From Candidatus Bathyarchaeia archaeon (GTDB taxonomy: Archaea; Thermoproteota; Bathyarchaeia; Bathyarchaeales; Bathycorpusculaceae), in contig JBEKOM010000006.1 of NCBI GenBank assembly GCA_049521795.1, positions 1 to 64,000 on the forward strand: 64,000 bases of DNA. The letters run 5' to 3'. Positions 10,749-63,729 of the stretch are shown piece by piece. Position numbers and translations under genes: made by a program. The notes below the pieces were generated by a model. That model saw only the letters and a list, made by a program, of their open reading frames with translations. It was not told the DNA's origin and did not search any database. Within the stretch, counting starts at the first letter, position 1, and every line of letters begins with the position of its first letter.

Positions 10749-10995
10749 TTGGATCAGACGGGCCCTTACTCGCAAGCGGGTCAAGAAGGGCCCCAGGGGA
10801 GCCGTCCTCGTCGAGGAGCCGAACGAAAAGCTTGTCTACACGGTGAGATTTGTCCTGGGCATGACCGGCTGCTTATCAGCAATAGAAGTTGCAAGCATGG
10901 CCTTCCTGCACGCTTGGAACAGTGAGGTCTTCGCTGCAATCACCGGCTTAATCGGCACGGTCGCAGGCGTTCTAATCGGACAAAGCGCGCGCTAA
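10738..10995 (+). CDS. Small two-TM membrane protein (holin-like candidate)
   Basis: Basic N-terminus plus two hydrophobic helices at the end of the structural operon. Confidence 0.55.
   Translation: MMTDWIRRALTRKRVKKGPRGAVLVEEPNEKLVYTVRFVLGMTGCLSAIEVASMAFLHAWNSEVFAAITGLIGTVAGVLIGQSAR
10985..10992. repeat. (GC)n palindromic boundary motif GCGCGCGC
   Basis: First of a dispersed family; marks the end of the virion operon and the start of the cargo block. Confidence 0.7.
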
Positions 10996-11069
10996 GATCA
11001 CGGGGCTAGGCAAGACTAACCCCATGCAAGCTTAATTCATTGAAACGATTCTTGCATCAATCTTCACGC

Positions 11070-11933
11070 CTAGGCCTGATAGATCTTGTCAATTACCTTC
11101 TCTATTTCAGAAATGAAACCTCGTTGTTCTTCCAAATAGCTCTTGATAATTGCTTTGGACTCTGCTTCTCCGAAAGCTATTTTTTTAAAGGTGCCGTATT
11201 CGCCAGCAATCTTGCTGCCAACTATCCAAGCGCCTTGGTTGAAACCAATCGGAGAACATCCCGCTTGTTTGCAGAGATCTACAAGGGTTTTTTGCTTCTC
11301 TTCAAGAGTAGCTCGTTTTTCTGGTTTCATTAGGATGGAATATGTTTGGTCCAGCCATGTATCCAAAGGCTGCAAGTAGAACTGATCCTTTATTTGACTC
11401 TCATCTAAATCTCCCAAGTATGCAATGTCGCGAATGTAGAAAGAAGCTATCTTGGTGCCAATCCCACGAATATCGTCAATAAACGTGTGAGCCGTTTTCG
11501 TGTTTCCATCTTTTATTAGGACCCTTACATGATTTGCGATATTCGAGATCTTTTGCCTTGCCATTGCTGTCAAAACACCATAGTCGCTGTTCATTGGATT
11601 GCGTAATGGATTGGTTTTTAAACCGTTATAATCTCGGGGTGCGATCTCCGAGTAAATTGCCCATGCCTTAGTGGACTGGTCAGAATTAACTGTCTCCAGT
11701 CTACCTTGGAATACCTTTTCAATAGTTTGCCTTGCAATTACAGGATAAGCTTGCGCGCTTCCTTGGCGCTCGTAAGCATAGTTCTCTAAAAAGCATTCTA
11801 ATGCGATGTAATTGTTTTCAAACTGCCTCTTAAAATATACATCACTAATGTACGCATTTTGATAGACTGAGGCAAAGGCAGCCAGTCTCTTGGCAACCTG
11901 AATTTGGCTTGACTCGAAATCCAAATTGATCAA
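11070..11933 (-). CDS. HhH-superfamily DNA glycosylase-like protein
   Basis: Helix-hairpin-helix IRGIGTKIASFYIRD followed by QPLDTW (Asp at the GPD-like position). Confidence 0.65.
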   Translation of the reverse strand: MINLDFESSQIQVAKRLAAFASVYQNAYISDVYFKRQFENNYIALECFLENYAYERQGSAQAYPVIARQTIEKVFQGRLETVNSDQSTKAWAIYSEIAPRDYNGLKTNPLRNPMNSDYGVLTAMARQKISNIANHVRVLIKDGNTKTAHTFIDDIRGIGTKIASFYIRDIAYLGDLDESQIKDQFYLQPLDTWLDQTYSILMKPEKRATLEEKQKTLVDLCKQAGCSPIGFNQGAWIVGSKIAGEYGTFKKIAFGEAESKAIIKSYLEEQRGFISEIEKVIDKIYQA

Positions 11934-12138
11934 CTCCTGTATGATTCAATTCGTACGCTTTTAGGATTTCTAGAAGCGCGCGTCTCATTAATCAATAGGC
12001 AGGAAAGTGCGCGCACGTTGACTATTCATTATTTCGAAGGTTTGAGTCGCCTCCTTGGTTAACGTGGGCACGTCTTCACCCATACAAGCCCCGAAGAGTT
12101 TTTTCTTGACAAACTTAACTTTGGAGTCAGTGGATACC

Positions 12139-13566
12139 ATGCACAGACACGAGTTCTTCCACATCAGAAAGGTCCGCAGGACTTACGACAGGACCCGGAA
12201 CACGTTTTCCTTCAACATTTCGTACAACACAGCGGTAGCCTTAACGCCCAGAACATCAGCTGTGGCTGAGGCTTTTGGACTCGGCGTCGACGAAGAGCAC
12301 AGGTTCACCGTCCTGGATGCAGAATTGAAAATAAACCCCACAGACATCGTGTACATAACCGGCGACTCTGGCAGCGGAAAGAGCGTCCTCCTACGCGCCA
12401 TCAAGAAGGACCTCGGAGACATTGCAGTCGACGTCGCAGATATCCAGGTTCCTCATGATAAGCCGCTGATCGAGACTGTCGGCAAGACGGTTGAAGAGGG
12501 CCTTGAGCTACTGGCTAAGGTGGGCCTGGGCGACGCTTTCCTCTTCTTGCGATCCTACGACCAGCTCAGCGACGGACAAAAATACAGGTATCGTCTGGCC
12601 AAGCTTGTTGAAAGCGATAAGCAGTGGTGGATCCTAGACGAGTTTGCCGCTTCCTTGGACCGAGACACCGCGAAGATCGTGGCTTTTAACCTTCAGAAGC
12701 TTGCACGTCAACAGGGCAAGGCAGTGTTAGCAGCGACTACACACCTGGACCTGTTTGAAGACTTGCATCCCAGTGTTCACGTTCACAAAAGGTTTGGGAA
12801 AGAGATCACCATCAGATATTTCCCAAACGGGCCTGCCGGAGAGTGCAGCTTAGTCAAGGAGATGCGTGTTGAAGAGGGTTCTACGGAAGATTGGCGGACC
12901 TTGGCGAGTTTTCATTATCGCAGTCACCGAATAAGTGCGCCGCGTAGGATTTTCTGTTTGAAGCGTGGCGATGAGCTTTGCGGGGTGATCGTGTACTGTT
13001 ATCCGCCGTCTGCAAGCTTTGGGCGAAGGCTTGTTCTTCCGAGGATGAGCATGCGGGAGCTGAATGAGAAGCTGAGTGTCATCAGTAGGGTTGTTGTCCA
13101 TCCAAAGTATAGAACAGTGGGCTTAGGCGTTAGACTTGTCAGGGAGACGTTAGCCCTTGCTGGAACAGACTATGTTGAAATGTCAGCTGTGATGGCAAAG
13201 TATAACCCGTTTGCGGAAAAGGCCGGAATGAAGAGAATAGTGGAACAGCACCCGCCAAAAGAAGCTGAGAGGATCATGGATGTTCTCGAGGGCCTCGGGT
13301 TTAACACTCAGCTGCTCGGTAGCACAAACTACGTGCTGAAGACGCTTCAAATGCTGAATGAAGAAGGAGTAGCGAAAATAAGAGAAGCCTTAGCCAAGCA
13401 GAGGCATCCGCGTTTTCTGAAAAGCTTCTCGAATGACCTTCCCTTTGGCACAAGAGATGCTTATCAGAAAGAAATAGCAAACGCAAACCTAGAGAAGCTT
13501 GCAAGCCTCATAAAGATCTGCAGTTTCTTGATACAAACAAAGGCTTACCTTTTCTGGAAAAAATAG
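12139..13566 (+). CDS. Soluble ABC-family ATPase fused to a GNAT (Mom-like) acetyltransferase
   Basis: Walker A GDSGSGKS, signature LSDGQ, Walker B WILDEF, H-loop TTH; GNAT motif A RVVVHPKYRTVGLG. Frame is open from 12055. Confidence 0.85.
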   Translation: MHRHEFFHIRKVRRTYDRTRNTFSFNISYNTAVALTPRTSAVAEAFGLGVDEEHRFTVLDAELKINPTDIVYITGDSGSGKSVLLRAIKKDLGDIAVDVADIQVPHDKPLIETVGKTVEEGLELLAKVGLGDAFLFLRSYDQLSDGQKYRYRLAKLVESDKQWWILDEFAASLDRDTAKIVAFNLQKLARQQGKAVLAATTHLDLFEDLHPSVHVHKRFGKEITIRYFPNGPAGECSLVKEMRVEEGSTEDWRTLASFHYRSHRISAPRRIFCLKRGDELCGVIVYCYPPSASFGRRLVLPRMSMRELNEKLSVISRVVVHPKYRTVGLGVRLVRETLALAGTDYVEMSAVMAKYNPFAEKAGMKRIVEQHPPKEAERIMDVLEGLGFNTQLLGSTNYVLKTLQMLNEEGVAKIREALAKQRHPRFLKSFSNDLPFGTRDAYQKEIANANLEKLASLIKICSFLIQTKAYLFWKK

Positions 13567-14839: not shown

Positions 14840-15202
14840 ATGTCAGGTCAGTCATTTGAAGAGAAGAATTTGAGGGAATATGCGTTAGGTCATTTAGATA
14901 TTATTGAAGTTGGCTTGTCGCTGGCACAATATAATGAAGCGCGCGCGGCTATCGAGGTTGGGTTCGGCAAGATTATAGAGAAATTCCTTCCGGCCTACAG
15001 AGATCTTGACCTGCAGTTTACTGAGTGCAGGCCTCTTTACGATCCTATAGATGTTTTGGTTTTCAGTGGGTTGTTGAACAGGAAAGTTGACAGCATCACT
15101 TTCTTGGAGATAAAGTCTGGAAATGCCAAGCTGAATAACCATCAGAAGATGATAAGAGACGCTGTACTGGACAAGAACGTCGACATGAGGGTTCTCAAAT
15201 GA
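14840..15202 (+). pseudogene. Chimeric/N-truncated Holliday-junction-resolvase-like endonuclease (Endonuc_Holl type)
   Basis: C-terminal GKIIEKFLP..DPIDVLVFSGL..FLEIKSG motif; the first 33 codons look unrelated and join at GCGCGCGCG 14939-14947. Confidence 0.65.
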
Positions 15203-15705
15203 CGGAACTGATCGACGTCTTCCAAACGTTCAGAAAGATTCTTTGCGTGTGCCCATGCCGCAATCAGATCGTAAGGTTGAGTGACCTTCATCTCAAATAC
15301 GGTGGCAGAGCACCTAAGACCTGGCTTGACAAGCATGAGCTTCAACTCTTAAGGCTGCAGGAAAGAGTGGCAGCTTTTGAAGAAAAAGAAAAGGAATTGC
15401 GCGAGCAATCTGTGGACCGCGGCAGAAAGAAAGTGCCTTCAATAGTGAGAAAATGCTTATGCTCTGAATTCAGCAAACTAGAGTACGACCCATATGACAT
15501 TAAGGCAGTCATGGATCCTGTAGATTTCGTCGTGTTCGACGGACTCAACGAAGGAGAAGAGGTAAGGAGAATAACGTTTCTAACTCGAAAACCTAGCCCA
15601 AACATGAGAACGGTCACTGAATCCATGGGAAAAACGGTGAAGCAAGGCAGCTACGACTGGAAAGTGGCACGCATAAACACATCGGGAAAAGTAAGTCTCG
15701 AATGA
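15199..15705 (+). CDS. Holliday-junction-resolvase-like protein (second gene of the pair)
   Basis: N-terminal CVCPC, coiled coil, DPVDFVVFDGL motif; ATGA-coupled. Confidence 0.75.
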   Translation: MTELIDVFQTFRKILCVCPCRNQIVRLSDLHLKYGGRAPKTWLDKHELQLLRLQERVAAFEEKEKELREQSVDRGRKKVPSIVRKCLCSEFSKLEYDPYDIKAVMDPVDFVVFDGLNEGEEVRRITFLTRKPSPNMRTVTESMGKTVKQGSYDWKVARINTSGKVSLE

Positions 15706-15879
15706 GCGCGCGCTCCTATGCGGAGGGCTCTCACCGATTGGCCAACACTTTGACGATCTAGTCTTAGCCACAGTCTCATCAGAGTTACCTACATTGAAAT
15801 CTGTATACGGTACAGTGACGAAGATCCAACAGTTGCTCATCTTAGACAGACCTTCGCAGCCGTTGGATACATAAACGGC

Positions 15880-16553: not shown

Positions 16554-17891
16554 TCAACTGGTTTTCGAAAGTAGTTCCTTTAGAGCCTGGAGCCATGTTT
16601 CTGTTGGTTCGTCTATAGGAGCCATCAAAGGCCTGCGTAAAGCAAGGCTCTCGGCATAGGCGACTAGCCAAAGCTTTGCTAACTTCTCTCTTTCAGTAGT
16701 CTTGAAGCGGCTAGCTTGTAGTGTCACCCACTCTTGCAGGCGCAAGATGACTATTTTCACTTCGAATTCCTCCTGCAGTTCGGTCATCTTGTCAGTTACA
16801 TCATCGCGCAGATCCGGCTTTGTCTCAGTCACGAAGCCAACAATTCGCAGTTCAGGAAACTGCTCCTGAGAAAGTTTGTCATGCAATTCTAGCAATTCGT
16901 CGTACAGGTATGGTTTTCCGTATTTTGCGTCCCATGCTTCAGCGATCGCGTCTGCTTGGGTTAGTTCTATGTCTGCAATATTGCCGGCCTTCTTGTTCGC
17001 TTGCCTCATTTGAGAGAGGGTTCTTAATTCCAATGCTCCCAAGCCACCCAATGTCTTAATAGCTTGCATCAACGAGTGCATCCCGACCTCAAGCAAGCGT
17101 GCTGCAGGCAGACCGGGGTTCGCCATGTGTTTGATAAGTAATGTCAAAACTTGTTCAAGGTTCTTGACTGCGGCTGATTTCTTTCTAGCCAAGTCGACTA
17201 CTTCGGTAGCAAGGTCCTGAAATTGTTTGGACCTCTTAATCAGAAGGCATAAGGAATATTCAAGAGCTGTTTTTGCGTCGATCTTATTGGCTTCCAGAAG
17301 ATCGACAAGCTCTGTCCATTCTCTTTTGGCACCGCGTATAGCTGCTTTGTAGAATTTCGTATAGGGATAGTTTTCCGCTAGACTGCGTGTCATCATTACT
17401 CCATATTTGTTTACCTTGAGTAAATTCTCTTTTCGCAGAAATGGAGTAACGAATCCTGAGTCTAAAACCCTCATAGGGACTCCTTCCGCCCAAGAAAAGC
17501 TCCCTCGACCGGATTTGTGAAGCCTTACGCTCTGTTTTGGTTCAATCGCTTTTGTAGCCATCTGGAGGATTGCCAAACCAACAATGGCTCTTCCCACTTC
17601 GCTTGTTATGGCATCCACGAGCTTTTTCAACATCTCTTTGTGGTCATCACTAATTCTTTCGAAATCGACTTTGCCTTCCTTGCAACGCTTGATAACTGAG
17701 TCGAGAAAACCTTCAGTAAACCTCTTTCGAATGTAATCTGCACGTTTTTGGGCTTCTCTTGTCTGACTTCCTTCTCGGAAGACTTGAAGTCTTCTGCCGT
17801 CTTTTTCGTACAAGATTGAGCGATCGTCGTATATTCTTAAATGGGGGAGAGTGGGATCTTCGTCCGAGTCTATATTTACCTGCTTCGTCAA
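16554..17891 (-). CDS. Putative type II restriction endonuclease (PD-(D/E)xK)
   Basis: Coupled to the C5-MTase; GNIADIEL...AWDAK nuclease-like motif. Confidence 0.6.
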   Translation of the reverse strand: MTKQVNIDSDEDPTLPHLRIYDDRSILYEKDGRRLQVFREGSQTREAQKRADYIRKRFTEGFLDSVIKRCKEGKVDFERISDDHKEMLKKLVDAITSEVGRAIVGLAILQMATKAIEPKQSVRLHKSGRGSFSWAEGVPMRVLDSGFVTPFLRKENLLKVNKYGVMMTRSLAENYPYTKFYKAAIRGAKREWTELVDLLEANKIDAKTALEYSLCLLIKRSKQFQDLATEVVDLARKKSAAVKNLEQVLTLLIKHMANPGLPAARLLEVGMHSLMQAIKTLGGLGALELRTLSQMRQANKKAGNIADIELTQADAIAEAWDAKYGKPYLYDELLELHDKLSQEQFPELRIVGFVTETKPDLRDDVTDKMTELQEEFEVKIVILRLQEWVTLQASRFKTTEREKLAKLWLVAYAESLALRRPLMAPIDEPTETWLQALKELLSKTS

Positions 17892-19891
17892 GAGAGATCT
17901 ACCTCTAGGTGTTTTCTCAACTGCACGCTATTAGGATTGAGTGTAGGGAATGAGTATGGAACAAGGTAATGACCTTGTGGTATGTTCAAGTTTGTGCTTT
18001 GCCCCCGGACCTCATATCCCAATTTGCGCAGCTGCTTCAGCCCATGCCGGACTTGTTCTTGGGATACTCGAAACAAGCTAGCTAGTGCTTCAAGGGAAAG
18101 AATCCGTCTAATCGCGACTCCTTCCACGACTTTTCTTACCAACTGCCAATTCTCTCCGTCTTCAATGGACATCTTCACGGCAAAGTGAGGTAAGTATTGA
18201 TAGTATCCGCAGAGCTGGACTAGATCTGCTTTAAGGTTGGTCTCAACCAAGAATTGCTCAAAAGCCTTCCACAAGCCCGTAAACACCTTAGGACGTAAAG
18301 GTGAACCTACTAGTCTAACGCTTTGTAATGGAATGTCCCAGCCAGCTCTTGAAGGCCCAACCGTCATAACGCAACCACCTAAGGAATCTGACTCATTACC
18401 TAGTTCTCTGCTGTGGACTTCAACCGACAACAAGCTGCTGGACAATTTTGCAGTCACGAACAACTCTGACTCTCGTTCTGGGCAAACTCTCCACGTAAAG
18501 TCATCCATGTTCATCTTTGCATAATAGGCCGTGGAGAAGTCTAAAGGTAGTTTTTCGGTTTTTCTAGTGGGCAAGGCAGTAAGTAGTTTTATCGCTTTTG
18601 TAGCCTTGGTTTGGTAGATCTTTGTCAGTTCTCTTTTGCGCCTCCTGAATGAAAGTGGTTCATATGGAGCAAGCAACTTGATATCTGCTGTTATTTGAGC
18701 CTTCCAAACCTGCTTCAGCAGACTTAGCGCTAACATGCGAGCCAGCTGCGGAGGCACGGAATTTCCTATTTGTGTTATGGCAGTTTGTTTATTGCCTACG
18801 ATGATGTATTCATCAGGAATTGTGTGTAGCCGCTTAAGTTCAGCCACAGAAAAAGGCCGATTTTCCCAGTGAAAAGGACCTGTGTATAACCCGCCAGTTG
18901 CTTTCAGCGTCCTGATGGGCTCTTTAGGGTCGGCTTTGTACAGAAAATCGGAGAACTTCGAACGCCAGGCGAAAATTGGCCTAGGATGGCCCATTCTGGA
19001 AGTGTAGAAAGAGTAATTCAGTCCAGGCGGCACGTCCTTTAGCAGATATCCCCATCGCCCTCCAATCGGCCCTGGTTTCTCTTCCTCACATAGATCACGG
19101 AGTGCCTCTTCAGCGACATAATAAGGATGCTGGTCGGGTGAGTCGGGACCATGAGTAGGCTTGGGGAACAAGAACTGCATGCCTTGCACTCCAACAGCGA
19201 TAAGCCTTTCCCTATGTTGAGGAACACCATAATCTGCAGCATCAAGTATTCTGTGGGTCACGGTGTAACCCAGCTCTGCAAAATCAGATAAAACCGCTTT
19301 CCATGTGTCACCGTTTTGCACCCCGGTCAAGCCATACACGTTCTCAAAGAGAAAGGCAGTCGGACGAACTGACTCAATTACTTCTATGAACTGTTTGTAC
19401 AACTCTCCTCGAGCATCCAACAGTCCTGGGGCGCCTGCTGCTCTTCGACCTGCAGCTGAAAAGGATTGGCAAGGAGGTCCACCTAGTACAAGATCAATTT
19501 TGCTTGCGCTTGGAGGTTCGTAATCACCTATGTCTTTACATAAAATCTTGGAATTCCTGAAGTATGTTCCCTTGTTCTTATTTGCTTCTAGGGTTTCGGC
19601 AAAAGTCTCGTCGATCTCAACCATTTCGACATTCTCGAAGCATGCATCATCGAACCCAATGTCCAATCCGCCTCCACCAGTGAATAGGCTAATAGTCTTA
19701 AGGGGGAATTCCAGAGCCTTTATCCGTAAGCGCAACGCTTTGCCAAAGGCATTAGGCCATCCGGGTTCTTCAGACACACCAAGCGATTTAAGCAGTGTAT
19801 CAAGATAACCTGGCTCCGCTTCGGCACCTGGCAGTTTCGCTAACTTCAATTGTGAACTGCGACTTACTCTCTGTTCAGCCAGGTATGTCAC
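17888..19891 (-). CDS. DNA (cytosine-5)-methyltransferase with C-terminal extension
   Basis: FTGGGG (I), GGPPCQSFS (IV), ENV (VI), QHRER (VIII), IGNSVPP (X). Confidence 0.93.
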   Translation of the reverse strand: MTYLAEQRVSRSSQLKLAKLPGAEAEPGYLDTLLKSLGVSEEPGWPNAFGKALRLRIKALEFPLKTISLFTGGGGLDIGFDDACFENVEMVEIDETFAETLEANKNKGTYFRNSKILCKDIGDYEPPSASKIDLVLGGPPCQSFSAAGRRAAGAPGLLDARGELYKQFIEVIESVRPTAFLFENVYGLTGVQNGDTWKAVLSDFAELGYTVTHRILDAADYGVPQHRERLIAVGVQGMQFLFPKPTHGPDSPDQHPYYVAEEALRDLCEEEKPGPIGGRWGYLLKDVPPGLNYSFYTSRMGHPRPIFAWRSKFSDFLYKADPKEPIRTLKATGGLYTGPFHWENRPFSVAELKRLHTIPDEYIIVGNKQTAITQIGNSVPPQLARMLALSLLKQVWKAQITADIKLLAPYEPLSFRRRKRELTKIYQTKATKAIKLLTALPTRKTEKLPLDFSTAYYAKMNMDDFTWRVCPERESELFVTAKLSSSLLSVEVHSRELGNESDSLGGCVMTVGPSRAGWDIPLQSVRLVGSPLRPKVFTGLWKAFEQFLVETNLKADLVQLCGYYQYLPHFAVKMSIEDGENWQLVRKVVEGVAIRRILSLEALASLFRVSQEQVRHGLKQLRKLGYEVRGQSTNLNIPQGHYLVPYSFPTLNPNSVQLRKHLEVDLS

Positions 19892-25078: not shown

Positions 25079-25101
25079 TGATTTTGCATTGTTGGGAGAG
25101 A

Positions 25102-47063: not shown

Positions 47064-47099
47064 GGTTTTGGAATGTTTTATATTTGCTCATTATTCTAG

Positions 47100-55529: not shown

Positions 55530-55563
55530 GCATCAAGAACCTATCAAGTCAGCCAGAAACAGG

Positions 55564-55652: not shown

Positions 55653-55823
55653 ATAGACCACTAGACGAAGCTTTGCGTTTTGAAGAGATATTTGAATTAT
55701 CTTGAAGAATTGACGAGATTTCTGCTTTTAGCCCATTCTGAGAACTCATTCATTCTCATCCTCGATTTAAACCAGTCCTTCTCGTAAAAGCGCGCGCGCA
55801 AACCCTACAGTGGAGGCAGATTC

Positions 55824-56114: not shown

Positions 56115-56362
56115 TGCTCAATTCATTTTTCTTTGGAAAATTCCTTATGTAAAAAATAAATAAGAAAAAGACCAAAGAAAAATCCGTGGGTACATCATAA
56201 CAGAAACTAGAATTTTCTTCCTAAGGTCGCGCGCGCTGGACACCATCCCTATCTAGACGCTGCTAGTAGTTTTAATTTTCACGTGCTTTCTCGGGTTCAG
56301 TTGATCGCCTGCCACGCAATCTGCGTTAAAAGCAAAAGTAGCGCGCGCCGAAGAAGCTTGAA

Positions 56363-57808
56363 CTATTCGATTTTCATGTAGGCAAGGAGCAACTTCGTCA
56401 GATCCACTACATCAAGAATGCAATGCATTTTCTTGGCCCGATCACATTGATTTGTGAATTTCTCTCGTGGTTCGTCCAAAAGAATTCCCGTGTAAACGAG
56501 AAAAACCACTTGCACTGGCAAATCTACCGCTTTGACAAGATTTGAAGCAATATCCTTCAGGGTGATCTTCGGATAGCCCTTTCCCTTGATAATGATAGCG
56601 GCATCTCTCAGATCATTTTCATTGTTGACATACAATTTGTGCAGGTACAGGTCCGCTTTTTCCGCAGGACTATGAGAAGTGATATTTTGATCATGCAATA
56701 TTTGTCTCAATCTCTTCCCTATCTCGTTCTCTGACATTTGTTTTGTGCTCTGCAATTGATCATGTGTGACATCTGAGATTTCACGCGTTTTTCTAAATGA
56801 ATACACATCATAAACGGTTATTTTTCCGACCCTTCCAGTTGGAGTAATAAAGACTTCATTCTCAAGGTCGAATATCTTTTGCACTTCGGTGGAATTGATT
56901 TCCTCAAATGGCATCAACAGATGTTCATTTCCGGACTTGTCGAGAAATCGTGCAAAGTAGAGATTGTCATTGTAAAACTTGTCAAACTCAAATTTGAAAT
57001 GGTTCAGATCAAAGAAAATAGGCACTGCGGCCTTAACCAGCACATCATAAACCATGGTATAGTTGACCACAAGCTGGTTCCCGTTGTCAATGCCTCTACA
57101 GATCTTCTTCAAATGCGCTATGAACAAGTCTAGTCTCTTGTCTAGCAGAGAAGAGACTATCCTGCCTTTGAATTTGTGTTCTGACCGTCTTGAGTTCTCG
57201 TACAAAACGAGCATGCCAGAGGCTGTATCTTTTGATTTCTCAAGTCTTCCATTGATATACAGTAGTTCGCAGGCAACTGTAGCCTTCTCAATAGTGGATA
57301 CGTTGACATTGGATGCCACGGTTTCATGTAGATCCAAGGCCAAACTGCCCTCAATCGGAATGAAGTCGAAGGTGAGCGGATCCTCGATGTGGACCAGCTT
57401 CAGCAGGTCAGCTGCCATCGCGATTTTCTCCGGCGTGATAACACATATTTTCTTGAACGCGTAGCAAAGAACTAACACGTTGCCTAATACTGATTCCTTG
57501 CCGATTTCGACTGTTTCTTTGAAGGACCATGACTTCAGTTCTGAATACGCAAAGTCAACTATTTCCTTTCTGAATTCGGCTGTGGAGAAGACGAATACTG
57601 AGCTTATCCTGTTTAAGAGACTTCTAATTACCTCAAGATTCTTCTCCCTGATTGCACGACTAATCAATTTCCTGCAAAATTCAAGATCTCTGAAATCATT
57701 TTCATTAGCCATTGACAGAAGAATATCCAAAGATAATCCGAAATCACTGAACTCCAGGACCAAAGTCCTCCAATCCCAATTGCTTTGCGCCAGTCCTTTG
57801 AGACGCAA
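56363..57808 (-). CDS. Protein with a C-terminal PD-(D/E)xK-like nuclease domain
   Basis: HSPAEKADL...AAIIIKG motif after a helical N-terminus; start may be 57712. Confidence 0.55.
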   Translation of the reverse strand: MRLKGLAQSNWDWRTLVLEFSDFGLSLDILLSMANENDFRDLEFCRKLISRAIREKNLEVIRSLLNRISSVFVFSTAEFRKEIVDFAYSELKSWSFKETVEIGKESVLGNVLVLCYAFKKICVITPEKIAMAADLLKLVHIEDPLTFDFIPIEGSLALDLHETVASNVNVSTIEKATVACELLYINGRLEKSKDTASGMLVLYENSRRSEHKFKGRIVSSLLDKRLDLFIAHLKKICRGIDNGNQLVVNYTMVYDVLVKAAVPIFFDLNHFKFEFDKFYNDNLYFARFLDKSGNEHLLMPFEEINSTEVQKIFDLENEVFITPTGRVGKITVYDVYSFRKTREISDVTHDQLQSTKQMSENEIGKRLRQILHDQNITSHSPAEKADLYLHKLYVNNENDLRDAAIIIKGKGYPKITLKDIASNLVKAVDLPVQVVFLVYTGILLDEPREKFTNQCDRAKKMHCILDVVDLTKLLLAYMKIE

Positions 57809-58721
57809 TCCTCTTGTATAATTCTTCTGCTATGTCAAACGCTGTCTGGTTCTTTCCTATAATGCCATCAGGTATAAAGAAGGTAATTCTTCCAGTCGAC
57901 GATACTCTTGTGGTGATTGTGATTCCTCCACCAAACGCCAACCTTCCCTCTAGTTCAAGCAGAGCAATCTTTCCCTCGCCAATCAAATCCAACACAACAG
58001 GGGCAGCAACAACACGATACCCTGCGAATTTCGCACGCACAAAATATTGGAGAATCTCCTTCATTTCTCCTTTGATCTTCTGTTTGGCGATTTTCTTCAG
58101 TTTCTCGCTTTCGCCAGGCGAAAGAGAAACATATTGAATGTCATCACCGAATTTTGTACGTATTACATCCATTTCTTCTTTTGAGAAGCCTGTTTCATAT
58201 GTTCTAAATCCTCCTTTTACGCTTCCTCTAATGCAATAGTTCGCGAATCTTAGTGCAGTAGCAGATATCTTGTCGTCTCCGCCAAAGAGGACAATCTTTG
58301 CTTTAGTGCTTGTCAAATACATGTTGATTACAACCCTGTAGGAAGGATTGACTGCTCGCAGCCGCCTCGTAGAGATTTTTAGATCGCCTTTCTCAAAATC
58401 AAGTCTTGTAGGCGTCTCCCTAGCATAGATGGATTTGATCGTATTCTCAAAGAAATCGAAATCAAGAAAGCCTTCTCTGTACCGTCTTTTCTCCTTTCTC
58501 CTGAAACCATAATCTTCCAAGAGCTTTCGTCTTATACTATCAGCAGTCTCGTTGAGGTTTGCTTGCTCGTCAAACTCGGTTTCCGAGACAAGAACTGTGA
58601 CTGGCATTATGGTAGGAGTCCGAACTTCCTCTTCTTCAACAACGAGATCATCCAGCGAAAAATCGTCTTCCATAGAGTATCCAGTTCTATGAGTGATAAT
58701 GAAACCTATATGACTTGCCAT
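57744..58721 (-). CDS. Hypothetical protein
   Basis: ~310-325 aa open frame directly upstream of the nuclease-like gene. Confidence 0.7.
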   Translation of the reverse strand: MASHIGFIITHRTGYSMEDDFSLDDLVVEEEEVRTPTIMPVTVLVSETEFDEQANLNETADSIRRKLLEDYGFRRKEKRRYREGFLDFDFFENTIKSIYARETPTRLDFEKGDLKISTRRLRAVNPSYRVVINMYLTSTKAKIVLFGGDDKISATALRFANYCIRGSVKGGFRTYETGFSKEEMDVIRTKFGDDIQYVSLSPGESEKLKKIAKQKIKGEMKEILQYFVRAKFAGYRVVAAPVVLDLIGEGKIALLELEGRLAFGGGITITTRVSSTGRITFFIPDGIIGKNQTAFDIAEELYKRIASQRTGAKQLGLEDFGPGVQ

Positions 58722-58872
58722 TGAACCCTAGGATGTGCTAATCTTACTCCACTCTTAAGCGTCTTTCTAGTCTTCCTGTTCTTTTCAGTCTCTCAACCTC
58801 CACAGGTCTAGTGCTTCAAAAATCGCGTCTGAACGGTTCAGACTACAGACCTTTTAATAATTTGGTGGTTGA

Positions 58873-59340
58873 TTGATTCTCTGTTTGCTCAACGGAGGTG
58901 AAAACGTGGTTGAAAAGCCAAATCCGACAGACGTTGAGGTTGTCACAGAAAAACTGAAGAACGGAAAGCTGAAAGTAGTCGGCTCAAACCCCAAGTCCAA
59001 ACCGAAGGCTAAAGAGGCAACTGGCGACATGAAGCCAATGCTGAAGAAGCAGAACCCAGAATCGAAGCACAAGACAGCAGTGAGTGATCAGCAACATCAA
59101 CAACGACCGCTGGTTGAGCTGAATGAAGAGAATTTTCTGAAGGCCATGCGAGAGCTCGGAGGCAAGAACGTCACCACATCGCAGTTGTGGCCGTACTTCA
59201 TCTCTGCAGACACGAAGCCACAGCAGAGGTTTCCAGTCATGCATCGGTTCGCGCGGAAGATGGAGAAGGCAGGCAAGATAACGATAACAACGAACCCCGA
59301 GAGAAAGCGTTTGCAGTACATGTACACCTTGACAGACTAG
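58873..59340 (+). CDS. Lys-rich protein with a C-terminal winged-helix domain
   Basis: FLKAMRELGG..TTSQL..MHRFARKMEKAGKI; probable start 58906 after GGAGGTGA. Confidence 0.6.
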   Translation: MILCLLNGGENVVEKPNPTDVEVVTEKLKNGKLKVVGSNPKSKPKAKEATGDMKPMLKKQNPESKHKTAVSDQQHQQRPLVELNEENFLKAMRELGGKNVTTSQLWPYFISADTKPQQRFPVMHRFARKMEKAGKITITTNPERKRLQYMYTLTD

Positions 59341-59409
59341 ACGTGACATCCAGATAGCGATTCAGGAGATCACTGGAATAGGCGCGTGCGCAGTCTTTGC
59401 CTTAATGGT

Positions 59410-60582
59410 TTACTGTACCTTGATGACCATGTCGCCGTCTATGAGTCTTCTTTCAAGCACGTTTTTTGCCTCCGATTTTTCTTCGTCTGCAATAGCTAGA
59501 GTACATCGGATTTCTTTGGGATTGAAGAGTATGCTAACGGCGTCCGGTGGGTACACTTTTCGAAAGACAGAGTGTCTTCGCCAAACCTGAATGTTATCGG
59601 ATAACACAAGTAGATACAATGTCGGCGTTTTCTCCAGAGGAATTTGGTAGTCGTGAAGGATGGGATCATTCACCAAATTGTGAAGTGATATCACAGCTGC
59701 GGCGTCAACGACCTCTCCATCAAACCACTGTCTACCCCAATCTATGAACTCGTAAGATCCGTTTTTCTCTTCTGTTTCTTCCGAAAGATAAAGCAAGTTC
59801 TTAGGATTATGCTCTGCATAAAGAGCGTCAATGAGGTTAAGAACAATCAGGGCGCTCAGAATCCCGTGATCAACGAAACCTTCTTTCACTTTCTTGTAAA
59901 AGTATTGCTTAAGATCAATGTCAAAGCCATACTCGGCAACTCTGTGCTCAATTAGCTTAAATGAATTGTCACCGCGATACAAGGTTTCCAAATTTTCGAA
60001 CCATGTTTCAGAACCGCTAGACTTCAAGTGTTTTCCGCGTTTGAGCAAATTCGCAAAACGTAGTCGGGACGAATCAGGCTTTTTTGGAAGGTGATCTTGC
60101 TTGAATGTGTCAATTTTCTGGAAGAACCTCTCCATTTGCCCGTACAGTATTTCAACGGGATAGCCAACGTCGTGCAGAAGTGAAGACAATTTCCAAACTA
60201 ATGGGTCAATATGTCGCATGTGACCTTCTATTCTTTCCACCTTACACATGAAATACAAACCAAGCAAGTAGGTATTGAAGGAATGCACAAGATGATCCCT
60301 CAAATGCTCATCGAAGAATTGCGCACCTGTCTCGATTCTTTCCAGAAAATCCAGCAGTTCTACAAACATTGGAGCCTTGCCATGTTCTGCTAGTATTTTG
60401 CTCGTCATTTCTACGGATAGATCCTTTCTTTCTCTAAGTGCTTCATTGTTTTCTTTGTTCTCATCGTAGGCAAGGAATCTTCGTAGCTGCTCTTTTATCT
60501 TTTTGAGACCGTATCTCCTCAAGCTAGGATTGTCTTTTTCAAGAACTGAATATATGTCCTTTTCAATGCCTAACAGACTCAT
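59410..60582 (-). CDS. HD-superfamily metal-dependent phosphohydrolase
   Basis: RDHLVHSFNTYLLG, LLHDVGYP, DHG, SLH and LSDNIQ motifs. Confidence 0.78.
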   Translation of the reverse strand: MSLLGIEKDIYSVLEKDNPSLRRYGLKKIKEQLRRFLAYDENKENNEALRERKDLSVEMTSKILAEHGKAPMFVELLDFLERIETGAQFFDEHLRDHLVHSFNTYLLGLYFMCKVERIEGHMRHIDPLVWKLSSLLHDVGYPVEILYGQMERFFQKIDTFKQDHLPKKPDSSRLRFANLLKRGKHLKSSGSETWFENLETLYRGDNSFKLIEHRVAEYGFDIDLKQYFYKKVKEGFVDHGILSALIVLNLIDALYAEHNPKNLLYLSEETEEKNGSYEFIDWGRQWFDGEVVDAAAVISLHNLVNDPILHDYQIPLEKTPTLYLLVLSDNIQVWRRHSVFRKVYPPDAVSILFNPKEIRCTLAIADEEKSEAKNVLERRLIDGDMVIKVQ

Positions 60583-60858
60583 GATTATCCGCCTAATACA
60601 CTATGGTTGGTGACAACGACGCGCGCTTATTGTACCCAATACACTCGGTATTCATCCGTGCTGCCTTCATATTTCTCGTATCCAATCTTTAGTAGGCCTG
60701 TTTTTTTTGAGATGGTTAGAAGGAAAGATGTTGCCAAAACTTGCCTGTCCCTGTGTTTTGCCCTTGAACAATCTGGGAAATCTATCTATCATTTCCTTCG
60801 CTAATCCCCATGAGTCGAATACATTTGCTTTTTCCTGACGCTTCTCTTTTTAGCCGAT

Positions 60859-61332
60859 TCATGGGCCTCCTAGATGCGCTTTCAAGATTGTTGAACCAAT
60901 TTCTATCAGGAACAAGATGTAGTCTTTGTTTGACTTAATCGCGTCTTTTATTTTCTGTAGTCGGGACTTTTCGTTTTGGTTTCTGACTTCACTAAGTAGA
61001 TTATTGATTGTTGTATCCTTAATACCCTCTCTGGCTAGCATATAGTCTGTTTTCAGCTTCATTCTCCTCGTCAAATACATATCTTCGGTGAGTTTGCCTC
61101 GATTGTGTTCCTCTCGCAACTCTTCAAGCTCAGAGAGAGCTACTTTCATTTCGACAAGTTGCCGCCTTAGAGGCTTAAGTCGGTCTTCTAGGTCAGGTCT
61201 TTTCACGATAAGTTCTTTTATCTGTTCAGAAGCTTGGTCTAAATCTGCGATTGAAGGCTCTTCTAGCGGGCACATTTTCATTCTGTTCCTTTGTCTTGAA
61301 TGCCAACTAAATCTTCTATTTCTTTGGAACAT
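60859..61332 (-). CDS. Small coiled-coil hypothetical protein
   Basis: Heptad-rich; GKLTEDMY motif; probable start ~61281. Confidence 0.65.
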   Translation of the reverse strand: MFQRNRRFSWHSRQRNRMKMCPLEEPSIADLDQASEQIKELIVKRPDLEDRLKPLRRQLVEMKVALSELEELREEHNRGKLTEDMYLTRRMKLKTDYMLAREGIKDTTINNLLSEVRNQNEKSRLQKIKDAIKSNKDYILFLIEIGSTILKAHLGGP

Positions 61333-62474
61333 GTCTTCTTCAAAGTCTTCTGAAGGTCGATTAGTTTTGTTTTGATAAGCCCCATTGCTTTAAGTGTCTT
61401 AACTCGATAAGTGCGATAGACATCTTCCGTGATTTCCTTTTTGACAAATTCTTCTTCATATCTTGCTAATTCTGTTTCCTGTACTTCATAATCCACTTTT
61501 AGCGAAGTGAACTCCTTTTGTATTTCTTCAAGATTGGCTCTATATCGTTCTTTGCGCTTTGCTTTTTCTGAATTAGCTCTTGCTTTAAGATTTTCGACTT
61601 TGCCAAATAGCTCAATTAGAGTATGCTCAATTCCCAGTTGAGCCATTATATCGACTTTCGGTTCAGTTTCCGCCTTTTCCAGTTCCTCCGATATTCCTAT
61701 GATTTCTTTATCAACCAACGTTAAACCTGTTTCGGCACCTATGATTTTTGGAATAATCTTGACTTTCTTCAAAACATAATTAAATACATCGTCTTCTGAT
61801 CTAAACTCCTCGGCATTGCCACGCTCTTTTATTGAATAGAATATCTCTTTTCTAGAATCTATATCTGGTTCTATCTTATGTGCTTCTTCGTCAGTTATCA
61901 GGTAATAAGAGTCTTTGGTTATTTTTTCTTTGATTTCGTTGGGGGTTCTTAAATACGACTCGTACATCGTGAAATCAATTAATCCTGTCTCTTGTCTTGC
62001 TTTGCTTATTCCTTTCTTGAAAATGGGTGAAAGAGGGCTTTTTTCTTTATCGACTAGAATCACTTTCAGCAAGTAATCTCGTACGCTGGAGTGTTTCCCA
62101 CCGATTTTGCCAATGTGCCTGAAAACATCAATGTCAAAACTTGGGTTGCCGACAATCTCAGCAGTTTCCTTGTTTACCTCCAACTTAAGCGATAAACGGA
62201 AATAATAGTCGGATGGGTCAGCATGCTCCGAGATTCTAGTGTTGAGATAAGCGTATATTTCGCTAATGACTTCAGAGATTTTCTGTTTGTTCTTGCGACC
62301 AATTGCAGAATTATAGAATGTTTTTTTCCTAGCTGCATACTCTTCGTCTGAAGGATACCTATAATGTCCAACTGCGCCTGCAACGGATGCGTATGTTCTG
62401 TGACTAATTGCTTCAAAACTCAGAATGCGGGTGATTGGTTCGAGTATTATGGTCTCGATTTTTTTCCTTGGCAT
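61278..62474 (-). CDS. Hypothetical protein with a C-terminal coiled coil
   Basis: 398 aa; EITEDVY motif; overlaps the downstream gene. Confidence 0.75.
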   Translation of the reverse strand: MPRKKIETIILEPITRILSFEAISHRTYASVAGAVGHYRYPSDEEYAARKKTFYNSAIGRKNKQKISEVISEIYAYLNTRISEHADPSDYYFRLSLKLEVNKETAEIVGNPSFDIDVFRHIGKIGGKHSSVRDYLLKVILVDKEKSPLSPIFKKGISKARQETGLIDFTMYESYLRTPNEIKEKITKDSYYLITDEEAHKIEPDIDSRKEIFYSIKERGNAEEFRSEDDVFNYVLKKVKIIPKIIGAETGLTLVDKEIIGISEELEKAETEPKVDIMAQLGIEHTLIELFGKVENLKARANSEKAKRKERYRANLEEIQKEFTSLKVDYEVQETELARYEEEFVKKEITEDVYRTYRVKTLKAMGLIKTKLIDLQKTLKKTCSKEIEDLVGIQDKGTE

Positions 62475-62606
62475 TTTCTGTCTACCTTGGTATATATTTG
62501 AAGTTGACTCTTAAATTTATCCAACATTTATCAATATGCTTGATCGAGTAGGCTAACCTACTGATGAACTTTCGAGTTTCTGACTTTCCAAAAGAAAAGA
62601 AAAAAG

Positions 62607-63620
62607 ATGAAGTTTCCAAGATTTTCTTTGATTTATAAAGTTGAAAATAGAAACCTTGATACGGTGAAAGAAATGAGTGTTCGCCAGCAAGATATGGAAA
62701 GAATGCTCGAGCACACGAAGAAAACCGCGGATTGGACAAGCAAACTCGTTTCTGCAAACAACCTGTTCCATCAAGGTCCTTCACAATATAGTGCTGCTGT
62801 AAATCAGTTTGGGAAGATAATCGAAATTCTGCTCAGACATCTATTTCAGGAAATCTCTATCATTTTGCCTCCAAAAGACAGGACTGACTTTCTTCGTTTT
62901 GAAGGACAGGTTGGCAAAGGAAGACCTTTTGGAAATTTCGGTTTAGGTCAAATGATAGATTTCTTTTCCAAGGCAGGAATCTTCGTGCTATTGAACGGCT
63001 TCTTGAAAGAAAGTGTTTTGGTATCAGCAGATCTCAACACCATCAATGATTTCAGGGTTGGCCAGACCCACTTCGACGAAAAAATAGAGAGAGGGAAAGT
63101 TGATAAAATTCGAGAAGACACGACGAATATCTTGCTCAAACTGGGATTGACAGAGAAAGACCCGGAGACCATTGAGGTTGCGAAAGCAAAAGTTCAAGAA
63201 GACAAGAAAATCCAGAATGAAATGCTGGAAGGTCTGAAGCGTATTCTCACCAAGATTCGTTGTGGATTGCTTGAGAATGCGACGGTTGAATTTTGGTCTC
63301 CTTTGGACAGAGGAGATGGTTGGTCTTCAGTTGTGGAGGCAAAGGCCGAGATAGCAGGTATCTACATAGATAAGAATAAGCTTTTTACGGTTATCGTTCG
63401 GGTTCTTGAAGTTCAGACTCCTCTCGATGAGGAGGAGCAGGCATACCAAGATCTTAGTTCAAAAGTGAGAGAAATTATCGTTAGGATTGCCCCTGAGGTG
63501 AAAGAGAAATTGAAGATTCTATTCTTTGCAGAATATGAAGGACAGATTATTGAGGGGTCTGGGCTAGAAGGATCAGCAGAAGTTTGTTCAAATGAAAAAG
63601 GCAGTTTAACTTTCAAGTAG
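62607..63620 (+). CDS. HEPN-like domain protein
   Basis: YSAAVNQFGKIIEILL helix, LGQMI and NDFRVGQTH (Rx4H). Confidence 0.55.
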   Translation: MKFPRFSLIYKVENRNLDTVKEMSVRQQDMERMLEHTKKTADWTSKLVSANNLFHQGPSQYSAAVNQFGKIIEILLRHLFQEISIILPPKDRTDFLRFEGQVGKGRPFGNFGLGQMIDFFSKAGIFVLLNGFLKESVLVSADLNTINDFRVGQTHFDEKIERGKVDKIREDTTNILLKLGLTEKDPETIEVAKAKVQEDKKIQNEMLEGLKRILTKIRCGLLENATVEFWSPLDRGDGWSSVVEAKAEIAGIYIDKNKLFTVIVRVLEVQTPLDEEEQAYQDLSSKVREIIVRIAPEVKEKLKILFFAEYEGQIIEGSGLEGSAEVCSNEKGSLTFK

Positions 63621-63729
63621 AATCGGGTCTAGCGGGTATTATCGCTCGCGCTCATAGAAACACATAGTATCTACACATTCTTGTTATCTAAACTGCATAA
63701 CCAGCACCAGAGATCGAGGTCTCACACAC

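Follow-up and report, generated by a model that had tools for sequence, protein, structure and literature searches.

The genome of a Bathyarchaeia archaeon contains short palindromic runs of alternating G and C, (GC)4-5, which arise where relatives have none, sit exactly at homology breakpoints and replace lost DNA. We give about an even chance to the reading that these palindromes are products of DNA rearrangement and not the sites where it is catalysed. The original prediction, made from a 64-kb stretch of one contig (the window), regarded the runs as an integron-like recombination core used to shuffle gene cassettes. As a whole, that interpretation is partly supported: the association of the runs with borders and truncation junctions extends to the genome, whereas the alleles of related species contradict integron-like exchange.

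Alternating G/C runs in the window and the genome

The source is a peat archaeon, represented by a Bathyarchaeia MAG. Ten alternating G/C runs of at least 8 bases are present in the window, against about one expected, and all ten lie where they had been predicted. The octamer GCGCGCGC has 11 overlapping matches there; 100 dinucleotide-preserving shuffles gave a mean of 1.01, in agreement with the earlier estimate of about one octamer by chance in 64 kb, and a maximum of 4, with 0/100 reaching 11. The density of 1.7 per 10 kb equals that of the whole 2.44-Mb assembly, and the window is thus average for its genome. Among 13 shorter or degenerate sites proposed previously, five were recovered no more than 2 bases off, at 11976 (7 bases), 12009 (6), 13590 (6), 32663 (6) and 60620 (7). 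The site given as 63647 may correspond to a 7-base run at 63845, and the remaining ones (14728, 14821, 20379, 21736, 35351, 48672 and 59382) are all shorter than 6 bases. Further 6-base runs were found at 864, 2870, 4639, 6575, 11753, 28824, 32391, 35681, 35907, 41297, 44518, 48063 and 59250. As predicted, no run of at least 8 bases occurs in 1-10984 (virion genes) or 39294-43203 (por genes), although 6-mers do. Eight of the ten long runs are intergenic according to our own crude ORF caller, from which all gene placements are taken.

Several runs in the window mark recognizable junctions. The run at 10985-10992 (GCGCGCGC) overlaps the last bases of ORF 10738-10995 and forms the left junction of an inserted segment of ~1.1 kb, so that insertion seams carry runs too. 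This segment extends from 10993 to about 12100 and carries ORF 11070-11933 on the minus strand. Paralogous or orthologous copies in G000 (C7 78000-77800) and G001 (2075350-2075550) are continuous and run-free at this site; homology to them ends at GGACAAA, at the exact start of the run, and picks up again only at about 12100-12115. The segment is a patchwork of pieces and contains GCGCGCG (11976-11982) and GCGCGC (12009-12014) separated by a 26-bp spacer. GCGCGCGCG at 14939-14947 is the truncation point of a resolvase-like gene within ORF 14840-15202: the Pfam PF10107 match begins at 14948, the first base past the run, and is limited to positions 74-158 of the 159-position profile, with the N-terminal portion of the domain missing. 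Another GCGCGCGC (15706-15713) lies directly 3' of the stop codon of a second PF10107 gene (15199-15705), and the one at 19989-19996 is located between a C5 cytosine methylase gene (17888-19891, minus strand) and ORF 20002-20334 (minus strand), in a block without DNA match in the 10 congeners searched.

The run at 35335-35342 (GCGCGCGC) has a HAD hydrolase gene (34313-35059) on one side and, on the other, an old-yellow-enzyme-type oxidoreductase gene (35361-36347, minus strand). It belongs to a lineage-specific segment (34013-37550) abutting the 3' end of tRNA-Asn (37553-37629, minus strand). In place of this segment, the sister genome has ~250 bp with CGCGCGCGC 27 bp from the tRNA end. At 47053-47060, GCGCGCGC is exactly at a homology breakpoint: alignment with both L001 and L003/G041 breaks off at 47052, L001 shows 77 additional bases and CGCGCG at the place of the run, and 47053-49748, containing an amino-acid permease gene and the next gene, is missing from G041. 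Beyond 54605 there was no syntenic match in the G041 DNA compared. In this part, the gene-poor stretch 55.2-56.4 kb contains GCGCGCGC at 55384-55391, upstream of tRNA-Ser (55564-55652), and (GC)5 at 55790-55799, downstream of it. CGCGCGCGC at 56228-56236 is followed, 104 bp away, by GCGCGCGC at 56341-56348, 14 bp before the end of ORF 56363-57808 (minus strand).

Throughout the 2.44-Mb assembly, GCGCGCGC has 417 copies and is the most over-represented octamer (14-fold; 816 observed vs 58.6 expected on both strands under an order-1 Markov model). The consensus is tA-(GC)4-Ta with a length of 8-10 bases and a sharp cut-off beyond 10. In 188 aligned 8-base runs, the flanking bases were A in 123/188 and T in 137/188, positions beyond +/-2 were at background, and nothing was conserved past ~12 bp. 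Intergenic runs of 7, 8, 9, 10, 11, 12 and 13 bases numbered 118, 181, 88, 48, 1, 1 and 1, respectively, whereas counts of the other five dinucleotide alternations fell monotonically with length. Because of this characteristic size, the length profile is not that of slippage. With regard to placement, 312/372 runs (84%) are intergenic and 52/372 lie in ORFs. In the 30 bp before start codons there were fewer runs than expected (19 vs ~36), and 0-5 bp after stop codons there were mildly more (20 vs 7.6); their distance to gene starts or ends is not fixed. The glycosylation island C13 (43.5 kb) has 46 GCGCGCGC matches in ~42 separate runs, situated between almost every gene. Gene-poor mosaics of short fragments split by runs were also observed (C2 5.8-12 kb with 20 runs and C9 0-4 kb with 12 runs), whose flanking genes, read by eye, are glycosyltransferase-like and P-loop ATPase-like.

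Homology breakpoints and indel alleles

We examined the conservation of the runs by comparison with two sister species. The three compared genomes are ~91% identical, which implies that the events are old and that intermediate states are possible. Runs are ~5-fold depleted in intergenic DNA alignable to the two sister species. For G041 (1.2 Mb, 206 intergenic runs), 19 runs were alignable, 34 were no more than 10 bp from where a block ends and 153 (74%) were lineage-specific, compared with 46%, 3.8% and 50%, respectively, of 4000 random intergenic octamers. Expressed by length, the sister genome has 19 runs in ~120 kb of intergenic DNA that can be aligned and 153 in ~125 kb that is lineage-specific, and the runs are thus not equally frequent in conserved intergenic regions. 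Inside aligned blocks, only 8/27 were conserved. By this sequence comparison, the runs appear not to be conserved regulatory sites.

For 82/474 block ends, one or more of the genomes had a run no further than 12 bp away, vs ~12 for ends shifted outward by 40-150 bp. BLAST block ends are accurate to a few bases only. A sharp peak was observed, 110/1192 block-end-by-genome cases having a run placed between -9 and +3, vs ~1 per base further out; breakpoints between species therefore do not avoid the runs. In small gaps (4-40 bp) within aligned blocks, clean run insertions accounted for only 1-2/201. The earlier claim that runs mark borders of accessory DNA and truncation junctions was borne out by this genome-wide tie to lineage-specific DNA, its borders and gene-truncation junctions, and none of the three refuting conditions set for the original prediction told against it.

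The short allele carried a run of at least 8 bases at the junction in 12/78 clean indels, where shifted windows predict 0.1, and a run of 6-7 bases in 6 more; the other 60/78 had no run. The corresponding long alleles of the 12 had runs at both ends in no case, at one end in three and at neither end in nine, and long alleles often hold intact genes. In 11/18 run-bearing events, an ORF of at least 100 codons in the long allele spans a breakpoint. As this ORF is whole in one genome and cut in the other, the run appeared where none existed; in the remaining 7/18 events, the run may be either the new or the old state. A clear example is G042/G002, in which (GC)n closes each of three adjacent deletions (4019, ~1035 and ~1480 bp); at these places the genes of G000 are intact and without run, and the long form of the largest deletion (4019 bp) is also present in G009, G008 and G005. 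In ~6/18 run-bearing events, the long allele already had a shorter or equal run at one end, which would likewise be compatible with a break or recombination at a run already present. GCGC seeds were not enriched at breakpoints (7/18 run-bearing events vs 18/60 others).

Proposed joining scars and rival explanations

The absence of run-flanked long alleles (0/12), together with the intact genes that they hold, contradicts integron-like exchange and fits de novo insertion of the palindrome at junctions of illegitimate joining. Accordingly named, the runs would be scars: unrelated DNA ends would be joined after deletion, insertion or replacement, and a self-complementary A-(GC)4-T of 8-10 bases would be put de novo at the seam. 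The palindromes would be produced as the ends are joined, for instance by the addition of the same alternating G/C tail to both 3' ends; such a tail is its own complement, so that any two ends could pair and be ligated. Against this reading, the A/T flank preference is unexplained, and most clean indels (60/78) lack a run. In the examples read, the flanking A was often ancestral and not added.

Another point against joining scars is that no enzyme was found for the joining step. Ku/LigD, the resolvase-like pair, PolX, PrimPol, reverse transcriptase, Vsr, C5-methylase and transposons showed no association with the motif. Genes for LigD_Prim-Pol, Ku, and ligase with 3'-phosphoesterase are located at 41155-44209 of contig C5, and the operon is complete in the genus. 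However, among 301 Bathyarchaeia genomes, Ku was detected in 6/27 motif-rich vs 67/274 other genomes, which implies that classical NHEJ is neither necessary nor sufficient, and G016 and G040 have both Ku and PolDom, yet 1 and 0 copies of the 10-mer. Ku/LigD is not supported as the source of filler: its domains are present in the genome, but the pathway does not track the motif.

Site-specific recombination was the mechanism originally proposed, with the run as the crossover core at which tyrosine integrases would insert, excise or invert gene cassettes in an integron-like manner. This would agree with the single genes of either orientation bracketed by runs in the window, the placement of runs between the genes of C13, the run-bounded blocks of 313-841 bp (94-98% identity) that occur in different contexts in two species, and the one-end runs of some long alleles. 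At 9/474 block ends, moreover, both genomes have a run of at least 8 bases at the same junction with unrelated DNA beyond, and the window contains one tyrosine integrase (Phage_integrase family; 25033-26424), although it is separated from the closest run by more than 5 kb and adjoins no run array. Nevertheless, we consider this mechanism unlikely, because reciprocal site-specific exchange predicts run-X-run alleles, none of which was seen among the 12 long alleles. Furthermore, breakpoints cut intact ORFs, the ends of extra DNA carry runs at only about chance level where the short allele is run-free (5/60), there is no conserved arm or hairpin past ~12 bp, and a conservative recombinase does not explain runs at new positions. 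It is also improbable, in our view, that the run is a functional intergenic signal, such as a binding site for an abundant chromatin or other DNA-binding protein, an insulator or a label of acquired genes, kept by selection with fast turnover and travelling with transferred genes. The occurrence of the same motif in different families, its defined length, a palindromic symmetry that would suit a protein binding as a dimer, and the intergenic placement with depletion upstream of starts and mild enrichment after stops are in line with a signal, but the ~5-fold depletion in conserved intergenic DNA, the small number of conserved aligned runs and the variable distance to gene starts and ends are not. 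A binding site also predicts neither the exact position at which homology stops nor runs that replace deleted genes.

Excision footprints of a TA-targeting cut-and-paste transposon or MITE with GCGC ends, leaving 4 bases per end between duplicated TA (TA-GCGC|GCGC-TA), would account for the t-A-(GC)4-T-a consensus and the fixed size, and a mobile element would fit the patchy spread over the class. This is a quite improbable origin: in G000, a search for repeats of 300 bp or longer with an identity of 85% or above gave just 11 pairs and no multi-copy element, and TnpB-type genes were not found; simple alleles of +8 to +12 bp are as rare as 1-2/201 small gaps; no long allele resembles an element with GCGC ends; and runs stand in for kilobases of ordinary genes. 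Very improbable is a HIP1-like palindrome raised in place through point substitutions by a methyltransferase and biased mismatch repair. The hyper-abundant octamer, the C5 methylase in the window and some aligned runs that differ from the other genome by single substitutions speak for it, whereas the paucity of runs in ORFs, their lack of conservation and the near-expected count of GCGC (9217 copies vs ~8500 estimated from base composition; the tetramer is not over-represented) speak against it. In addition, Vsr was found in 0/5 genomes and the C5 methylase (PF00145) in G000 only of 5, PF00145 was not found in motif-rich G127 (85% complete) or G125 (90% complete), and the window methylase has no DNA match in congeners. 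Finally, an assembly or amplification artefact joining fragments at low-complexity G/C had to be considered, as most genomes involved are short-read MAGs. It can be practically dismissed: an 8-10-base word is far shorter than assembly k-mers, and the closed single-contig chromosome G041/G001 has the motif at the same density (464 copies). Contigs of independent samples and studies also bridge the runs, with 0 differences, at 47053 (contig X3, record 9, 46269-47317) and at 56228 and 56341 (contig X4, record 21, 55934-56466), which argues against junctions made by assembly.

Known systems and distribution across Bathyarchaeia

Integron attC sites are imperfect palindromes of 57-141 bp recombined by IntI, with inner and outer core sites. 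The (GC)4 runs are similar in being palindromic and bordering single accessory genes, with mostly co-oriented gene arrays between sites in C13, but they are 8-12-bp sites without arms, in which only A-(GC)4-T is conserved, and alleles with a site-cassette-site structure facing a single site were 0/12. Filler DNA and N/P nucleotides are known from NHEJ, by Ku/LigD in bacteria and Methanocella and by TdT in V(D)J joining, and there the filler is short, variable or a copy of neighbouring sequence. As in these fillers, the extra bases of the runs are absent from both parents and lie exactly at the joint of unrelated ends, in a genus with a full LigD-Pol/Ku/ligase-PE operon; unlike them, they form one defined self-complementary word of 8-10 bases, with no tracking of the motif by Ku over the 301 genomes. 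Excision of Tc1/mariner/IS630 elements leaves a small palindromic insert with T-A on either side. The runs are also small palindromes flanked by T-A, but no parent element was found in the genome, kilobases of host genes are replaced and clean small insertions are rare. REP/RAYT systems involve palindromes of 20-40 nt with conserved sequence and a Y1 transposase (RAYT), compared with only 8-12 bp here. DNA uptake sequences are likewise over-represented, lineage-restricted words, but occur mainly in shared homologous DNA, whereas 74% of the intergenic runs are in lineage-specific DNA.

HIP1 (GCGATCGC) of cyanobacteria is reported to be an octamer palindrome and top over-represented word (15-300-fold), lineage-restricted, tied to two methyltransferases and of long unclear function (PMC4390886, PMC5861425), and it is described as conserved between genomes, both within and between ORFs (PMC5861425). 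The (GC)4 octamer is also a palindrome strongly over-represented genome-wide; in contrast to HIP1, its excess is 14-fold, 84% of runs are intergenic, their position is not conserved, they lie at rearrangement seams and no C5 methylase is shared. GC clusters of yeast mitochondria (e.g. GC42) are described as GC-rich intergenic palindromes that are dynamic between strains and linked to indels and recombination; they are stem-loop elements of ~42 nt with their own sequence families and an AG target, whose spread mechanism is still unsettled (PMC4478555). The runs resemble them as GC-rich palindromes of intergenic DNA tied to indels, but reside in an archaeal chromosome, have 8-10 bases and show neither loop nor family structure.

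If the runs are scars of DNA joining, selection would remove them within needed genes, and they would gather in dispensable DNA, such as pseudogene remnants, island borders, glycosylation gene clusters and the downstream flanks of tRNA genes, and later decay through point mutation. Such a build-up in dispensable DNA would give them the look of borders of accessory "cassettes". The motif was present in 10/10 congeners searched and patchy over the class, with high counts in 27/301 Bathyarchaeia genomes, and G132, which belongs to another family, has the same signature as the source genome. This patchy distribution suggests that the determinant of the motif has been gained and lost within Bathyarchaeia.

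Abundance, shape and spread of the G/C runs

All ten alternating G/C runs, (GC)n, of at least eight bases listed in the original prediction were found at their coordinates in the window. Its estimate of about one octamer by chance also held: 100 dinucleotide-preserving shuffles gave 1.01 matches on average and never more than 4, versus 11 matches of GCGCGCGC in the window (overlaps counted). The virion genes (1-10984) and the por genes (39294-43203) are indeed free of runs of eight bases or more, with 6-mers present in both. The 13 sites that had been called degenerate fared unevenly: five were 6-7-base runs, seven were shorter than six bases, and one coordinate was apparently mistyped.

The window is contig 6 of an assembly of 2.44 Mb in 69 contigs, which contains 417 copies of GCGCGCGC (1.7 per 10 kb). 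This density equals that of the window, which is not special within its genome in this respect. From the octamer ranking onward, contigs shorter than 10 kb (52 of the 69, several with foreign G+C) were dropped from the genome-wide run and gene statistics; about 20 small contigs, which probably do not belong in the bin, have a G+C content of 0.58-0.65, compared with 0.49 elsewhere in the assembly. On both strands of the 17 contigs of at least 10 kb, GCGCGCGC was the top over-represented octamer (816 observed versus 58.6 expected, order-1 Markov model), and the next-ranked octamers were its A/T-flanked neighbours. GTATATGC/GCATATAC were likewise among the most over-represented octamers. Internal GCATATAC repeats occur in a dispersed repeat of about 180-200 bp at 34095-34288 of the window. 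The 1.2 Mb of sister DNA examined contains five copies of this element (71-80% identity), and several are present in a second species (G042) and in contigs C1 and C2 of the genome studied here (G000); it may represent a family of small non-coding elements.

Genes were predicted with our own crude ORF caller (longest ORF plus codon log-odds, greedy), which gave 2122 genes and 82.6% coding sequence. By these models, 312 of the 372 runs of at least eight bases were intergenic, 52 lay within ORFs and 8 straddled an ORF end. Intergenic runs were found between tandem forward (105), convergent (69), tandem reverse (65) and divergent (63) genes, and their distance to starts or stops showed no fixed value of the kind related to promoters or terminators; they were mildly in excess just after stop codons and scarcer within 30 bp upstream of starts. 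Among 188 isolated GCGCGCGC runs, A preceded 123 and T followed 137; T and A were less strongly preferred at the next positions outward, and composition was at background farther out. The counts of intergenic runs of 5 to 13 bases were 410, 211, 118, 181, 88, 48, 1, 1 and 1. The distribution thus peaks at 8 and breaks off abruptly beyond 10, whereas the five other dinucleotide alternations fell monotonically to 8-23 at length 8. The runs are a defined object and not the product of microsatellite slippage. With regard to the DNA between runs, 91 of 237 segments match elsewhere in the genome, mostly over short and weak stretches, and a few short modules of 77-135 bp are repeated with 91-96% identity.

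The 10-mer AGCGCGCGCT, present in 92 copies in G000, occurred in all ten congeners searched (7-114 copies each) and in 0-9 copies in 30 genomes from other genera of the order; its reversed control gave 0-4 copies. Using this 10-mer as a proxy, we scanned 301 Bathyarchaeia genomes sampled evenly across the class and scored a genome as motif-rich if it held 10 or more copies and these reached five times the control or more; 27 genomes from at least seven families qualified. One of them, G132, belongs to a different family, and a 400-kb sample of it has the same run signature, with 11, 17, 8 and 1 intergenic runs of 7, 8, 9 and 10 bases and A..T flanks in 10 of 15 runs. The observation made on the window extends to its whole genome and to several Bathyarchaeia lineages.

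Runs and the breakpoints of homology

G000 was set against parts of two other genomes, 1.2 Mb of a closed sister chromosome (G041 = G001) and 392 kb of the second species (G042 = G002). Blocks shared with the sister were mostly 90-93% identical, and the second species, at about 91% identity to G000, is no closer, so that the comparison does not reach very recent events. Among 206 intergenic runs of the sister chromosome, 19 lay in alignable DNA, 34 within 10 bp of a block end and 153 in lineage-specific DNA, versus 46%, 3.8% and 50% of random intergenic octamers in the same classes. Inside aligned blocks, 8 of 27 runs were conserved. Of 474 block ends, which BLAST places accurately to a few bases only, 82 had a run no more than 12 bp away in one or both genomes, compared with about 12 for ends moved outward by 40-150 bp, and 61 of these 82 carried the run in one genome only. 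The offset of runs from block ends had a sharp peak, with 110 of 1192 end-by-genome cases at -9 to +3 and about one run per base farther out.

In the window, none of the ten runs falls within the four blocks shared with the sister chromosome (26446-29718, 30296-34012, 37551-47052 and 49749-54605), and the run at 47053 begins exactly at the end of the third. At 10985, the run forms the left joint of a 1.1-kb insert; two further copies of the region, one on contig C7 of the same genome and one in the sister, lack this insert and are otherwise continuous. In a truncated PF10107 gene, the domain match starts directly after the run at 14939. The predicted tie of the runs to accessory-gene borders and truncation points is real. 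An assembly artefact is countered by the closed sister chromosome, which holds 464 copies of the motif, and by contigs from independent samples that span the runs at 47053, 56228 and 56341 without differences. Most of the window is present in three or more independent samples. Data from four independent sequencing runs over 44000-63900 of the window showed no joints at (GC)n runs, a result that is uninformative either way.

Several other features of the window were observed. Positions 1-26445 form a lineage-specific block, missing at the same place in the sister genome, that contains virion-like genes and a cargo of ABC-GNAT, radical SAM, the PF10107 pair, an HD protein and a C5 methylase with a 445-aa partner; a tyrosine integrase (25033-26424) lies at its right end, beside the conserved nrdD. 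A second, diverged and partial copy of the block is located on C7, where window positions 1-791 match C7 90232-89445 at 89%, and 9000-10288 and 12115-13561 match at 80% and 90%, respectively. The two adjacent PF10107 genes (14840-15705), related to Holliday-resolvase endonucleases and with the first copy N-terminally truncated at the run at 14939, recur as a pair in several Bathyarchaeia genomes (G125 C364 1409-2215; G220, G250, G147, G188, G140 and others). A conserved pair of minus-strand genes (43236-47049), encoding an ATPase of the HerA/DUF87 type (625 aa) and a protein of 652 aa that matches no Pfam family, ends at the run at 47053; a second HerA-like gene (711 aa; C9 4087-6222) abuts the run-dense 0-4 kb of C9. 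Summed contig depth was very high (up to about 800) in four unrelated metagenomes at 55288-55951, 51968-52631 and 53296-53959, which is expected since tRNA-Ser (55564-55652) and conserved parts of a DEAD-box helicase gene (52258-53424) are shared with other organisms.

Allele structure at indels and the origin of the runs

Clean indels were defined as collinear junctions at which one genome has a gap of at most 30 bp and the other of at least 60 bp, and 78 were found among 179 junctions. The short allele carried a run of at least eight bases at the joint in 12 of the 78 and a 6-7-base run in 6 more, compared with a chance expectation of 0.1 (windows moved by 60-400 bp). Among the 12 corresponding long alleles, 9 had no run at either end, 3 had one at a single end and none had runs at both. 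When the 18 junctions were read, about 12 long alleles had no run and about 6 had a shorter or equal run at one end. At least one long-allele breakpoint lay within an open frame of at least 100 codons in 11 of these 18 events, so the short allele is a deletion that cut a gene; polarity was inferred in these 11 and confirmed by further genomes for one. In G042 214342-215099, three neighbouring deletions (4019, about 1035 and about 1480 bp) relative to G000 C1 574200-566937 are each sealed by (GC)n, whereas G000 has intact genes and no runs at the same six breakpoints; the long form of the 4019-bp deletion is also present in G009, G008 and G005. Replacements had a run at one or more of their four ends in 36 of 91 cases (a raw count with no control). 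Pure insertion of a run with no other change was rare (1-2 of 201 small gaps).

The original prediction regarded the runs as recombination cores of an integron-like cassette-shuffling system, with the resident tyrosine integrases as candidate enzymes. This mechanism is unsupported, as none of the 12 long alleles had runs at both ends; the observations are better explained by palindromes that arise de novo at illegitimate joints than by runs that serve as crossover sites. Repeated DNA is nearly nil in G000 (11 pairs with length ≥300 bp and identity ≥85%), which counts against transposon footprints, and TnpB was not found in this genome. A GCGC seed was suspected at breakpoints and was rejected on comparison with the control (7/18 versus 18/60). 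The best reading, to which we give about an even chance, is that the runs are a sequence-defined scar of non-homologous joining. It explains the runs that adjoin variable DNA downstream of tRNA genes, the PF10107 truncation, the gene-poor mosaics of short fragments between runs (C2 5.8-12 kb with 20 runs; C9 0-4 kb with 12) and the runs of contig C13, which lie between nearly all of its genes (46 GCGCGCGC matches, about 42 separate runs).

C13 (43.5 kb) is a glycosylation or polysaccharide island in which runs are denser than anywhere else in the genome (10.6 per 10 kb); by eye, its translations include GT2/GT4-like, epimerase, aminotransferase, asparagine-synthase-like and flippase-like proteins. 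On C2, a glycosyltransferase-like gene of 416 aa (4556-5806), duplicated at C4 122647-123897 (DNA 87% identical), stops 6 bp before the (GC)5 run that opens the 6-kb mosaic. This run is followed by a tRNA-like 3' fragment (GGGTTCAAGTCCC), an inverted copy of which is found at the other end of the mosaic.

For the scar reading, we infer that the run is made during joining itself. An alternating G/C tail might be placed on both DNA ends and, being self-complementary, the same tail would let any two ends pair; 8-10 bases is possibly the length at which the duplex grows stable enough for sealing. About one third of the events begin from an existing run, with a short-allele run of equal or greater length, and this pattern suggests that existing runs may also be re-broken. 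A more specific and rather unlikely version is an undescribed process in some Bathyarchaeia that joins broken DNA with the shared G/C tail as a universal sticky end. Every illegitimate joint would then be stamped with an A-(GC)4-5-T bar-code, and past deletions and gene captures would stay readable in the genome. As its enzyme, one would expect a polymerase or ligase-linker system, transferable between lineages, that synthesises a fixed dinucleotide repeat with no nucleic-acid template.

Candidate enzymes and comparison with known systems

A complete end-joining operon is present in G000 (C5 41155-44209), encoding a LigD primase-polymerase (288 aa), Ku (281 aa) and an ATP-ligase fused to a 3'-phosphoesterase (464 aa), and is followed by DUF72 and a glyoxalase/bleomycin-resistance-like gene. 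Ku and the LigD polymerase appeared genus-specific among 41 relatives. In the sample of 301 genomes, Ku was found in 73, namely 6 of 27 motif-rich and 67 of 274 other genomes; with no association between the two, NHEJ was rejected as necessary or sufficient. The PF10107 pair was likewise set aside (20 of 301 genomes; 3/27 motif-rich versus 17/274 others). Reverse transcriptase was found in none of 41 genomes and PolX, Prim-Pol and Vsr in none of five each; the C5 methylase was present in G000 alone among five.

Known systems resemble the runs in part. End-joining filler also places extra bases at a joint, and we know of no defined word in it. Integron arrays are similar in layout only. The GC clusters of yeast mitochondria are also GC-rich, palindromic, intergenic and dynamic, but are described as families of 42-nt stem-loops, unlike the run (PMC4478555). 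Cyanobacterial HIP1 is equally abundant and also palindromic, and it is described as conserved within and between ORFs and linked to methylases (PMC4390886, PMC5861425). The (GC)n motif behaves in the opposite way: it is not conserved, lies at seams and is located outside genes. The main text of Elhai's HIP1 paper mentions neither archaea nor GCGCGC. Literature searches at the level of titles and abstract openings, covering GCGCGCGC in archaea, intergenic palindromes of Bathyarchaeota and archaeal joining filler, gave nothing on this motif.

Even under another mechanism, a word with the abundance of HIP1, the opposite behaviour and a patchy presence across several families needs explaining. 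Double-strand-break repair in archaea is poorly understood beyond a few model species. If the runs are scars, they would be the first sequence-defined junction mark that we know of in a prokaryote. They would likewise indicate an activity that joins DNA by making or inserting a linker of fixed, self-complementary sequence, which would be relevant to archaeal double-strand-break repair and could serve as a tool. Each deletion or capture would then be tagged, and gene loss and gain in uncultured archaea would become countable and datable from sequence.
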